Assembly (NCBI GenBank): GCA_041661385.1
Contig: JBAZUP010000001.1
Coordinates: 81,692 to 145,691, forward strand
Length of the DNA stretch: 64,000 nucleotides
Origin: Patescibacteria group bacterium
GTDB taxonomy: Bacteria; Patescibacteriota; Patescibacteriia; Magasanikbacterales; GWA2-37-8
Direction: 5' to 3'
Shown: positions 40,545 to 42,275 of the stretch, piece after piece
Numbering within the stretch: position 1 is the stretch's first letter
Layout of the letters: each line of letters opens with the position of its first letter
Program-made: the position numbers and the translations under genes
Notes under the pieces: model-generated
Seen by the model: the letters and a program-made list of their open reading frames with translations, nothing else
Databases searched by the model: none
Told to the model about the DNA's origin: nothing

Positions 40545-42275
40545 TTACGGTGCACCGCAGTCGGTGCCGTCTTCGTCGCAGATGTCGGCTTTGACGTTGA
40601 AGAAACGACAAGTCGTCCATGACGATCCGTATTGGCAATGTGCGTTGATCAGGTCGGCCTTCACGCCGCTGTCCGGAGCAGACGAGCCGACTGAAATGTT
40701 CTCGGAAAGCGTGAAGTCCCAGACCGTTGGCTGGTCGTAGAATTTCAGGTCAGTTCGGTAGTAACATGAAGGTGATCCTGCGGCGCACGTGTTTGTGTTC
40801 GGCAAACTTTTTGATTCAAGAAGCACGTCAATCCAGGTACCAGTAATTATGCCTGTGATGTCAGTTGTCACGAGGCCGTTGTATCGAACTAATGTGTTTG
40901 CACCTGGGCGCAGATACTTACATTCGGATGCAGTGATACCAGGCACTCCTGTGTTTCCCGGGTTTGCGGTCTGCTGCGGAAATGAGGTGAAGCGGCAGCG
41001 TGTGCAGTATCCGTAGCGATCAAATTCGAAATTCGAGTTGACGCCATTGGTGCAGCGCGGTCCACAGTTCATGTTGTTCAGTACCGGCAAGTTGAAGTCG
41101 ATCGGATTGATCGGAGCGAGACATGCGGTCGATGCCGCTCCACATTGGCTTGCAACTCGACAGGCCGCCGCCTTCTGTTGCATCTTCTTGATGAAAGCGT
41201 CGACCTCTTGTTGTTTATTCAGGAACATGCTGAGGTCTCCATCACATCCGGCGTCGTAGAGGCGACCGGGGTGATTGAGGCGGTTCTTCAGGTCGTTCTG
41301 GAGCAGGCGGGCTTTCTCATAATAGTTCGCCATGTTTTGCATCTCATCTAGCTGAGCAGTAATATCGGGGAACCTCTTACCGTTCGGGAAATTTGAAGCG
41401 GCGTAGTAAGACCGGGTCGACACCGACACCGGGTACGCGTTTGCGTAGGTGAGTGGTGTTGAGGAGCTAATCGAGCCAAAGTCGATTGCCTGAGCGATCA
41501 ACTGATCGGGGGTGAGACCGACCGTGGTAAAGGTGCCGCCTTGCTGGAAGACCTGCAGCTCGGTTCGGTACTGTTTTTGAGCTGCTGCAAGGTCGCTCTT
41601 AAATGAGGCGTCACCGCTCCAATTTCCGGAATTAGCGCTAAGTGTAATACCCAGGGATTCCTTGGTTTTCACACTGAGCTCAGAGAACTTGTACACGGCG
41701 CGAAACAGACCGCCCTTGGTGATTGACGACACGAACTGGTCGCCACACTGGGCATAGAAGCCCTCGGGGTCGCTGTTTAGTTTTGCAATGGCTTGATCGG
41801 TTAGATCAGCGGGAGACAGGACCCTCGCTGGAAACTGGACATTGACATCAAGCACCAGGTAAGCGCTCGTGCTGTCTATGGCTTGAGAGTTGTAATAGTT
41901 TGCGCTCGCTTCCACGCTAGAAAGACCTGCTGACCACTCGACGTTTGCATCAAGCGAAAGTGCCGTGCGAAGGGCCGAAGTGTCCTTTGCGTAAGTGAGC
42001 TTGAAACTACGCTGAGCAGTAGTGGGGTCAGGAGAAGTATCCGCTGTGACTTTGATGCACTGATCAACAATCGACCCGTTCAAGGTGCTGAGACCTGAAC
42101 CGATGAGGATCGCTGGCATGGCGCCCAAATAGTTCTGACTTCGAGAGACCAGGGCGGGCACGCAGGAGGAACCGTCGACAGAATCTTTTTTGCCACAACC
42201 GTTGTTGGTGAGGGAGGTGAGAAAGATGAAAGCAACAAATGCAAACCACCTTGGACTCATCATTATCTTGGTCAT
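40545..42275 (-). CDS. Cys-rich secreted lipoprotein with MACPF (perforin-like)-like domain features
   Basis: signal peptide plus lipobox-like LTNNGC; IGSGLSTLNG; amphipathic Ser/Thr/Ala stretches; CGDQFVSSITKGG approximates [YW]G[TS]H[FY]x6GG; C-terminal 250 aa with >20 Cys; start trimmed to MTKIMMSPRW. Confidence 0.45.
   Translation of the reverse strand: MTKIMMSPRWFAFVAFIFLTSLTNNGCGKKDSVDGSSCVPALVSRSQNYLGAMPAILIGSGLSTLNGSIVDQCIKVTADTSPDPTTAQRSFKLTYAKDTSALRTALSLDANVEWSAGLSSVEASANYYNSQAIDSTSAYLVLDVNVQFPARVLSPADLTDQAIAKLNSDPEGFYAQCGDQFVSSITKGGLFRAVYKFSELSVKTKESLGITLSANSGNWSGDASFKSDLAAAQKQYRTELQVFQQGGTFTTVGLTPDQLIAQAIDFGSISSSTPLTYANAYPVSVSTRSYYAASNFPNGKRFPDITAQLDEMQNMANYYEKARLLQNDLKNRLNHPGRLYDAGCDGDLSMFLNKQQEVDAFIKKMQQKAAACRVASQCGAASTACLAPINPIDFNLPVLNNMNCGPRCTNGVNSNFEFDRYGYCTRCRFTSFPQQTANPGNTGVPGITASECKYLRPGANTLVRYNGLVTTDITGIITGTWIDVLLESKSLPNTNTCAAGSPSCYYRTDLKFYDQPTVWDFTLSENISVGSSAPDSGVKADLINAHCQYGSSWTTCRFFNVKADICDEDGTDCGAP

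Follow-up and report, generated by a model that had tools for sequence, protein, structure and literature searches.

What protein a Patescibacteria genome encodes between an rpoA-rplQ-rplM-rpsI ribosomal cluster on one side and an AhpC/RF-1-domain/polysaccharide-synthesis cluster on the other, in a gene of foreign base composition, and what such a protein might do, are the questions raised by the stretch of DNA analysed here, a 64-kb segment (hereafter the window). The gene was located as originally reported, as a complete minus-strand open reading frame (ORF) of 576 codons plus stop; it is deposited as hypothetical protein WC725_00580 in the NCBI metagenome-assembled genome (MAG) of a Patescibacteria group bacterium, in which the longest contig measures 778,751 bp, and an identical 576-aa protein was called in four other assemblies. 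The original prediction had seen in this protein a Cys-rich lipoprotein with perforin-like features. The answer that we hold to be the probable one, with moderate confidence, is that the gene encodes an exported, receptor-targeted pore former of the MACPF/CDC superfamily, belonging to a divergent bacterial subfamily and probably acquired by horizontal transfer.

An AlphaFold2 model of the protein built with a 98-sequence alignment (mean predicted local distance difference test, pLDDT, 85.8; predicted template modelling score, pTM, 0.84) contains a central, bent and twisted four-stranded antiparallel β-sheet (Table 1). Its elements follow one another in the order β1, first transmembrane hairpin region (TMH1), β2, helix-turn-helix (HTH), β3, second such region (TMH2) and β4, and this is the order that defines MACPF/CDC domains such as those of Plu-MACPF and C8α. 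The core sheet and the two helical clusters that the original prediction expected in a structural model are hence all found, and in the correct order. The helices of the HTH (160-168 and 170-177) directly precede the strand that holds G188-G189. The two TMH candidates are both about 40 residues long (41 and 40 aa), with 50-56% Ser, Thr, Ala, Gly or Asn and alternating hydrophobic residues around a central turn. In the TMH1 candidate, where these residues make up 56%, the helices span 99-105, 110-113 and 123-128, and the maximal β-moment reaches 2.47 against a protein mean of 0.86; in the TMH2 candidate they span 202-213 and 223-235, with the alternation running on both sides of an NSGN turn and a mean β-moment of 1.28 against that same protein mean. 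The Ser/Thr/Ala stretches that had been likened to TMH regions from the letters alone, LSLDANVEWSAGLSSVEASA (106-125) and ITLSANSGNWSGDASFKS (210-227), fall inside these two clusters. Judging from the model, both segments appear long and amphipathic enough to refold into membrane-spanning β-hairpins.

In a Foldseek search of the PDB with this model, MACPF/CDC proteins make up almost all of the top 44 matches, including stonustoxin (E = 3e-10), perforin (3nsj; 1.4e-7), MPEG-1 (1.8e-7), the Aeg-L pore (9uj0; 3.4e-7), C8 (3.9e-6), TgPLP1 (7.6e-6), Plu-MACPF (2qp2; 1.8e-5), Bth-MACPF (3kk7; 4.3e-5), GNIP1Aa (1.2e-4) and perfringolysin O (3.1e-4). A second list of structural matches is headed by stonustoxin-β (11.0, with 314 residues aligned), with TgPLP1 (9.2), GNIP1Aa (8.6), C8α and Mpf2Ba1 (8.4 each), C9 (7.9), Plu-MACPF (7.3) and Aeg-L (7.2), CDCs and CDC-like proteins (7.1-7.4) and the perforin pore (6.5) also present. 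Non-pore-forming folds among the top matches and a missing core sheet were looked for as signs against the assignment; the top matches are MACPF/CDC proteins and the core sheet is in the model, and the assignment therefore stands.

At the level of sequence, significant homology to a solved pore former emerges from the family profile, whereas the single sequence yields nothing. A search with hmmscan against PF01823, which the original prediction had put forward as a check, gave no match for the protein at E ≤ 10, nor did the remainder of Pfam at that threshold; the single sequence likewise had no match in NCBIfam, none of whose models covers the family, and no meaningful match in a phmmer search of PDB sequences. 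A MarR match at E 2.5 in the single-sequence searches was dismissed as spurious, and a word-indexed protein search, run with the single sequence or with an 18-sequence profile, found only the protein itself. In an exhaustive HMMER/phmmer search of 1.84 billion cluster representatives, relatives numbered 1,266 at E ≤ 1e-3 (an upper bound, since low-complexity proteins with repeats, P0053 for example, are among the matches), 275 at E ≤ 1e-10 and 17 at E ≤ 1e-30. Some 17 of them (P0002-P0017, P0020) align near full length, including the Cys-rich C-terminus, and the region shared by the rest is limited to approximately residues 55-375. PF01823 is reached weakly by three of 79 relatives (best E = 1.3e-3) and does not recognize the Aeg-L fragment either. 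Since the Pfam model misses the protein and nearly all of its relatives, they form a divergent branch beyond its reach.

A profile of 98 relatives matches chain A of 9uj0, Aeg-L, with E = 1e-24 and 90 bits over 288 profile positions (31-318), and at the signature motif it aligns with Mpf2Ba1 (8b6u, E = 0.036; 8b6v, E = 0.052) and with astrotactin-2 (5j69, E = 1.4). A direct BLASTP comparison of the window protein with Aeg-L is marginal (E = 0.006) and covers a 20-residue motif only. The PDB entry 9uj0 is titled 'Structure of Aegerolysin-L pore', and Aeg-S and Aeg-L of Alternaria alternata have been described as pore-forming proteins that perforate epithelia (PMC13341504, PMC13253223). The structural matches, the core of the model and this profile match jointly support the original assignment of a MACPF fold, and on profile comparison the family is a divergent, unannotated bacterial subfamily of MACPF/CDC proteins that has a homologue in Aeg-L, a fungal pore former.

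The family consensus (...lGrGYD...SAsAS...F..rCGDeFVssvttGGeF...) carries a GxGYD start as well as a signature with G-x-x-F-x6-GG spacing, the two hallmarks of MACPF domains. The motif IGSGLSTLNG, which had been compared with the start of MACPF domains, is a degenerate version of the G-x-G-Y-D start; the corresponding family consensus, lGrGYDsltg, aligns with GQGYNTYL of Aeg-L, and G61 is conserved. Positioned 119 residues further on, in agreement with the spacing of about 120 given originally, CGDQFVSSITKGG (177-189) matches the MACPF signature Y/W-G-T/S-H-F/Y-x6-G-G at exactly the features that had been listed, namely G, F, the six-residue spacing and GG. The strict signature is absent, as CGDQFx6GG mismatches at Y, T and H, and a relaxed match of this kind is only mildly improbable by chance (about 0.02 expected per protein, as estimated from the protein's own composition). 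Of the 150 best homologues, 122 carry the pattern [C/Y/F]-G-D-x-[F/Y]-x6-G-G, which is therefore a genuine family signature rather than a chance resemblance. The broader signature region, FYAQCGDQFVSSITKGG, at the end of the HTH and the start of the bent strand β3, aligns in the family profile with YGDRFIADFIKGG of Aeg-L and GSHFLTGIVMGG of Mpf2Ba1. Across 98 homologues, conservation is 90% or higher at G61, F173, G178, G188, G246 and Y290, and the window protein keeps every residue conserved to that degree.

The N-terminus has the appearance of an export signal, with a basic n-region (MTKIMMSPR), a 13-residue hydrophobic core (WFAFVAFIFLTSL) and TNNG immediately before Cys27. The lipobox-like LTNNGC that had been read here does exist as a string (residues 22-27), but it is not a canonical lipobox, with Asn at positions -3 and -2. 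An intact N-terminus is found in 13 relatives, most of them with a canonical lipobox, and Cys27 lines up with the N-terminal Cys of all 13; the contexts of this Cys among full-length relatives include LAAC, VSAC, MGC and GGC; in the wider family, a strict lipobox is seen in 18 of 144 members. The recurrence across full-length relatives of a hydrophobic segment ending in Cys argues that the subfamily is probably a lipoprotein family, and homology likewise supports probable lipidation of the window protein at Cys27. In a pattern scan of the window, it is the sole protein with a lipoprotein-like N-terminus.

Beyond the MACPF-like domain, the model shows a long α-helical hairpin (helices 306-334 and 345-372, pLDDT 89-98) leading to a C-terminal β-domain, which is predicted to fold as a compact β-sandwich with a TNF/C1q-type jelly roll. 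In structure, this domain is matched best by C1q heads, TNF ligands, carbohydrate-binding modules and viral jelly rolls; its profile found no match among PDB sequences, and no Pfam model matches it. The cysteines had been overcounted: against the more than 20 claimed for the C-terminal 250 residues or so, there are 15 in the last 250 and 19 in the whole protein, and of the CxxC and CxC pairs mentioned, one CxxC (424-427) and no CxC is found, next to one CxxxC (404-408). After Cys27, the mature protein would have 18 cysteines, an even number compatible with nine disulfides and suggestive of an all-disulfide extracellular protein; Cys404, Cys408, Cys424 and Cys427 may either take part in disulfides or form a Cys4 zinc or metal site. 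Across 13 relatives, nine cysteines never vary, and one more shows at least 90% conservation. A disulfide-rich targeting domain is hence still plausible, given a TNF/C1q-like jelly roll with conserved cysteines, even though the Cys count on which it was proposed was exaggerated. Furthermore, distant relatives carry Jacalin, RicinB, ChW or other modules in place of this domain, and such interchangeable lectin-type C-terminal modules are the pattern expected for a pore-forming core combined with targeting domains. The C-terminal domain is presumed to be a receptor-binding or targeting domain.

In the mechanism that we propose, a Sec signal peptide would end at Cys27, which would probably be lipidated, and the protein, laid out as MACPF domain, helical hairpin and disulfide-rich jelly roll, would sit on the external surface of the Patescibacteria cell or be shed from it. 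Its C-terminal domain would then bind a surface glycan or protein of another cell, monomers would oligomerise via the MACPF sheet, and TMH1 and TMH2 would unfurl into amphipathic β-hairpins that assemble into a large β-barrel, a pore through the membrane of the target cell. With a bacterium that depends obligately on a host, this cell would most likely be the host itself or a competing bacterium.

Several observations weigh against a pore former of this kind. The Pfam scan of the single sequence is blank, the canonical Y-G-T-H of the signature is replaced by C-G-D-Q, and NNGC conforms to the lipobox rule [LVI][ASTVI][GAS]C at -1 (Gly) and +1 (Cys) and departs from it at -3 and -2. Tethered by lipid to the cytoplasmic membrane of a walled cell, the protein would have limited reach to a target, and neither Lgt nor LspA was found among the approximately 30 of some 58 window ORFs that were scanned, the window representing some 8% of the genome. 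The surroundings show no evident immunity or receptor-variant gene, and the MACPF gene is known from one Patescibacteria population only. Lastly, astrotactin-2, a MACPF protein titled in the PDB as a neuronal-development protein, has no demonstrated lytic activity, and Plu-MACPF and Bth-MACPF are not known to be lytic either. The presence of these non-lytic or unassigned proteins among the structural matches (astrotactin-2; Bth-MACPF, 3kk7; Plu-MACPF, 2qp2), together with the replaced Y, T and H, the lipid-anchor-like N-terminus and the TNF/C1q-like lectin fold, would fit a MACPF-fold protein without lytic pore formation, i.e. a surface adhesin holding the episymbiont on its host through a lectin-like C-terminal domain, with the MACPF domain as scaffold or membrane-binding module. 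We consider such an adhesin unlikely, since Aeg-L, the strongest solved sequence relative, forms a genuine pore, since the length of about 40 residues, the composition and the alternation needed for β-hairpins are preserved in both TMH regions, and since the GG hinge and the other family-invariant residues are retained.

For a receptor-targeted pore former, the nearest functional analogy is found in the BSAPs (Bacteroidales secreted antimicrobial proteins), surface lipoproteins that combine a MACPF domain with a receptor-binding C-terminal domain, recognize surface proteins or glycans of other bacteria and form bactericidal pores against related bacteria; one of them, BSAP-1, assembles, once activated by proteolysis, into a β-barrel pore of 13 subunits (PMC12853789; bioRxiv 10.64898/2026.08.05.742979). 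The likeness to proteins such as BSAP-1 (N-terminal lipoprotein Cys, in the window protein a candidate one, MACPF domain, variable C-terminal receptor-binding domain) is a parallel of architecture; it rests on layout and not on a comparison of C-terminal domains, that of the window protein being a TNF/C1q-like jelly roll. BSAPs match PF01823 (PMC12853789), whereas the window protein does not, and membership in that family is hence not claimed for it. BSAPs are exported to the outer-membrane surface of diderm cells via a lipoprotein export signal, and BSAP-1 becomes active when an N-terminal regulatory domain is cleaved; the window protein shows no evident counterpart of that domain, Cys27 being separated from the fold by about 20 residues.

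Compared with Aeg-L, its closest solved homologue by profile, and with fungal MACPF partners of the pleurotolysin B type, the window protein differs in having a signal peptide of its own, a lipobox-like Cys, a helical hairpin and a Cys-rich TNF-like domain. Aeg-L has been described with a second protein, Aeg-S; a two-component system of the Aeg-S/Aeg-L type was considered and rejected for the locus, where the small neighbouring ORFs have no Pfam match and no aegerolysin-like neighbour is present. The homology to Aeg-L and the marginal relation to insecticidal proteins invite the thought of a pore-forming toxin directed at eukaryotes, such as protist grazers or invertebrates, in the manner of insecticidal MACPF proteins or of the Aeg-L/aegerolysin pair. 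We rate this as decidedly improbable: according to abstracts in the literature, Patescibacteria are known as epibionts of prokaryotes, an aegerolysin partner gene was not found nearby, and the lipoprotein-MACPF-C-terminal domain layout fits the antibacterial BSAPs. In addition, those relatives whose organism is identified come from Myxococcota and Oligoflexus, lineages with bacterial predators.

Canonical MACPF proteins (perforin, C6-C9, MPEG-1, TgPLP1, Plu-MACPF and Bth-MACPF), as well as stonustoxin, share 9-14% sequence identity with the window protein, which differs from the canonical proteins by C, D and Q in place of Y/W, T/S and H in the signature and by the lack of C2, EGF, TSP, β-prism and PRYSPRY domains. 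Insecticidal Mpf2Ba1 and GNIP1Aa (6fbm) are marginally related in sequence and have different C-terminal domains. CDCs and CDC-like proteins (perfringolysin O, 1pfo; pneumolysin; the Elizabethkingia CDCL, 8g32/8g33) score lower than MACPF proteins, and the window protein departs from CDCs in its MACPF-type G..F-x6-GG motif and in a C-terminal domain that matches TNF/C1q-like folds and not domain 4. Membership among the CDCs proper was rejected on the grounds that no Pfam or NCBIfam cytolysin model and no domain-4-like structure was matched (the undecapeptide was not searched for explicitly).

The 576-aa reading frame is not the longest possible one, which would begin at a GTG at 42410 and yield 621 aa. 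The ATG at 42275 is preferred over this longer form because it places the signal peptide at the N-terminus, because the gene callers of the four other assemblies picked it, and because upstream of it the guanine-plus-cytosine (GC) content falls to 0.33-0.35. An obvious strong ribosome-binding site was not seen upstream of the gene; promoter-like and terminator-like signals are present in a consensus scan.

Table 1. Features of the MACPF-superfamily gene and of other loci in the window (window coordinates; residues refer to the 576-aa protein).
Feature	Residues	Position	Strand	Basis or remarks
MACPF-superfamily protein ORF, complete	1-576 + stop	40545-42275	-	NCBI MAG hypothetical protein WC725_00580
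Signal peptide	1-26	42198-42275	-	Read from sequence
Cys27, candidate lipidated cysteine of degenerate lipobox N-N-G-C	27	42195-42197	-	Aligns with N-terminal Cys of relatives
MACPF-like domain	~45-300	41376-42143	-	β1 88-96, β2 138-147, β3 180-197, β4 238-245
Degenerate MACPF G-x-G-Y-D start (IGSGLSTLNG)	58-67	42075-42104	-	Profile consensus; G61 conserved
TMH1 candidate, three short helices between β1 and β2	97-137	41865-41987	-	Model secondary structure
Signature region	173-189	41709-41759	-	Conservation, profile alignment
TMH2 candidate, two helices between β3 and β4	198-237	41565-41684	-	Model secondary structure
Long α-helical hairpin joining MACPF and C-terminal domains	306-372	41160-41360	-	Model
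Cys-rich C-terminal β-domain, TNF/C1q-like jelly roll, presumed receptor-binding	395-576	40548-41093	-	Model
A/T-flanked hairpin between convergent MACPF and metalloprotease genes, likely bidirectional terminator		40461-40491	.	Consensus scan only
Archaemetzincin (peptidase M54)-like Zn protease, 227 aa		39697-40380	+	Convergent with MACPF gene; GC3 0.53
GC-rich 20-nt hairpin, first copy		39259-39278	-	Same orientation as second copy
GC-rich 20-nt hairpin, second copy		42603-42622	-	Same orientation as first copy
62-aa ORF inside high-GC segment		39302-39490	-	No family match; gene call in one assembly
63-aa ORF		42648-42839	-	No family match
Unannotated 705-aa ORF		20178-22295		Upstream of coupling protein
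HIT-domain ORF, 133 aa		22301-22702		Between 705-aa ORF and coupling protein
Type IV secretion coupling protein, 675 aa, VirD4/TrwB-like		22714-24741	+	TrwB_AAD_bind E 4e-11
RiPP-like gene set		26488-32058	+	GC 27-31%

The composition of the gene sets it apart from its surroundings, with a GC content of 0.53 and a GC content at third codon positions (GC3) of 0.61 against 0.28-0.39 in neighbouring genes and an overall GC of 38.8% for the window. So abrupt a shift, from approximately 0.35-0.40 to 0.53, could in principle reflect a high-GC fragment joined into a Patescibacteria contig through chimeric assembly or contamination. The same locus, with the same junctions, is found at 99.94-100% identity over up to 6.5 kb in four other assemblies (NCBI, ENA and two from Logan) that stem from different samples and pipelines. 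Low-GC flanks are present on both sides in the four assemblies wherever the contig continues, one contig (L003) stopping 66 bp past the stop codon; ribosomal-protein genes flank the gene in the three contigs that reach that far, and AhpC and polysaccharide genes lie on the opposite side in all four. An assembly chimera is therefore effectively ruled out, and we give it next to no credence.

The closest relatives, at 35-44% identity, come from Archangium sp. and Polyangiales MAGs (both Myxococcota) and from unassigned contigs of 58-69% GC, the gene of the closest homologue itself having 52.5% GC. The foreign GC3, taken with the occurrence of relatives in Myxococcota MAGs and in high-GC contigs, indicates that the gene was probably acquired horizontally from a higher-GC lineage, with or next to the archaemetzincin-like gene. 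The protein had no match in a phage collection, and hence there is no hint of a phage vector. A search of loci with a 5-sequence profile returned two genome loci and two weak metagenome loci, and no neighbouring gene is conserved across the loci of the MACPF relatives. Myxococcota relatives (loci L005, from the Archangium sp. MAG, and L006, from the Polyangiales MAG; proteins P0014 and P0015) carry long N-terminal extensions before the MACPF domain, with many Asp/Thr/Ala repeats and with Cys-rich modules; the NCBIfam acidic double-disulfide repeat is matched at E 1e-32 in two members. More distant named relatives include Sandaracinus and Oligoflexus, and relatives on plasmids come from Clostridium botulinum and C. 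sporogenes, Bacillus thuringiensis, Deinococcus, Polaromonas and Paracoccus. The plasmid homologues of the MACPF-like domain in Clostridium sporogenes/botulinum (NZ_CP022406.1, CP006901.1, NZ_CP013241.1, NZ_CP121697.1) and B. thuringiensis (NZ_CP044980.1) show 25-26% identity at E 3e-8 to 8e-15; judging by these alignments, these 'hypothetical proteins', encoded on large Clostridium and B. thuringiensis plasmids, appear to be MACPF-fold proteins so far unrecognised in toxin-rich plasmids.

The gene might also be a recently transferred, intact passenger without a role in its present carrier, unexpressed, or yielding a protein that is not exported or not folded with the correct disulfides. Its strongly foreign codon composition (GC3 0.61 against about 0.33), the lack of an obvious strong ribosome-binding site and the restriction of known carriers to this population are what such a passenger would show; its full-length ORF with all family-invariant residues and conserved cysteines, the identity of the protein in four other assemblies from different samples, the promoter-like and terminator-like signals and the small size of the genome (longest contig 0.78 Mb) are not. 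Small genomes are thought to shed useless DNA quickly, and we regard a passenger gene as very unlikely.

The archaemetzincin-like gene next to the MACPF gene is likewise of foreign composition (GC3 0.53). Its product contains HEVGHMFG, HCTNRCIM and CPDC as motifs, and no signal peptide is evident in it; it matches NF033823 and Peptidase_M10 weakly, and its homologues, many of them with PF07998, share no more than 38% identity. BSAP and CDCL toxins are protease-activated, and by analogy with them the adjacency of a metalloprotease gene is suggestive. A conserved protease partnership was rejected, the proteins that neighbour the gene in the window being missing from the loci of its relatives. 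With no signal peptide on the protease, and no archaemetzincin-like gene beside MACPF relatives elsewhere, the adjacency is best read as coincidental or as the result of co-transfer, and not as functional.

Two identical GC-rich 20-nt hairpins, GGCCCGAC-TTCG-GTCGGGCC, flank a high-GC segment of 3.3 kb, in which the MACPF gene is found together with the archaemetzincin-like gene and the 62-aa ORF. They are the sole copies in the 64 kb, none being expected by chance, and each is terminator-like and lies 22-24 nt downstream of a small minus-strand ORF, the 62-aa and 63-aa ORFs each being followed by one of them; in the latter ORF, a CxxC...CxCC spacing suggests a zinc ribbon. The hairpin pair may mark the boundaries of an island or a duplicated insertion site.

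Elsewhere in the window, a set of very low GC resembles genes for ribosomally synthesized and post-translationally modified peptides (RiPPs), comprising a radical SAM enzyme, a Lant_dehydr_C protein, two unannotated ORFs (134 and 306 aa) and a 694-aa protein whose LanB N-terminal match is weak, and may constitute a lanthipeptide- or thiopeptide-type cluster in a Patescibacteria genome. The type IV secretion coupling protein and the two ORFs upstream of it are listed in Table 1.

The MACPF superfamily, its fold and its mechanism are already known, as are antibacterial MACPF toxins that are lipoproteins. What is new here is a divergent, unannotated bacterial MACPF subfamily linked to Aeg-L, a fungal allergen and pore former, a Cys-rich TNF-like domain at the C-terminus that had not been described before, and the presence of a member of this subfamily in a Patescibacteria genome, apparently by horizontal transfer; a full-text literature search found no paper linking MACPF proteins with Patescibacteria or with the candidate phyla radiation (CPR). 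The observation concerns a single horizontally acquired gene in a single population, and the function proposed for it is a candidate one. For the family, it exposes a sizeable bacterial MACPF subfamily, with the 275 cluster representatives at E ≤ 1e-10 annotated by neither Pfam nor NCBIfam; the source names seen are all 'hypothetical', as in seven of the nine plasmid matches, save for two Deinococcus plasmid matches labelled 'GON domain-containing protein'. For the organism, the molecular means by which ultrasmall Patescibacteria/CPR bacteria, with their minimal biosynthesis, obtain resources from their hosts or kill them are largely unknown, and a well-supported perforin-fold protein, predicted to be exported and to carry a binding domain, provides a concrete candidate effector for the interaction between episymbiont and host. 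A more specific scenario, which we hold to be unlikely, is that this perforin-like lipoprotein was captured from predatory-type, Myxococcota-like bacteria and perforates the envelope of a bacterial host at the contact site, drawing out metabolites. If that scenario were true, the protein would be the first effector of CPR parasitism to be identified, and a bacterial counterpart of the perforin that immune cells deliver across a synapse.

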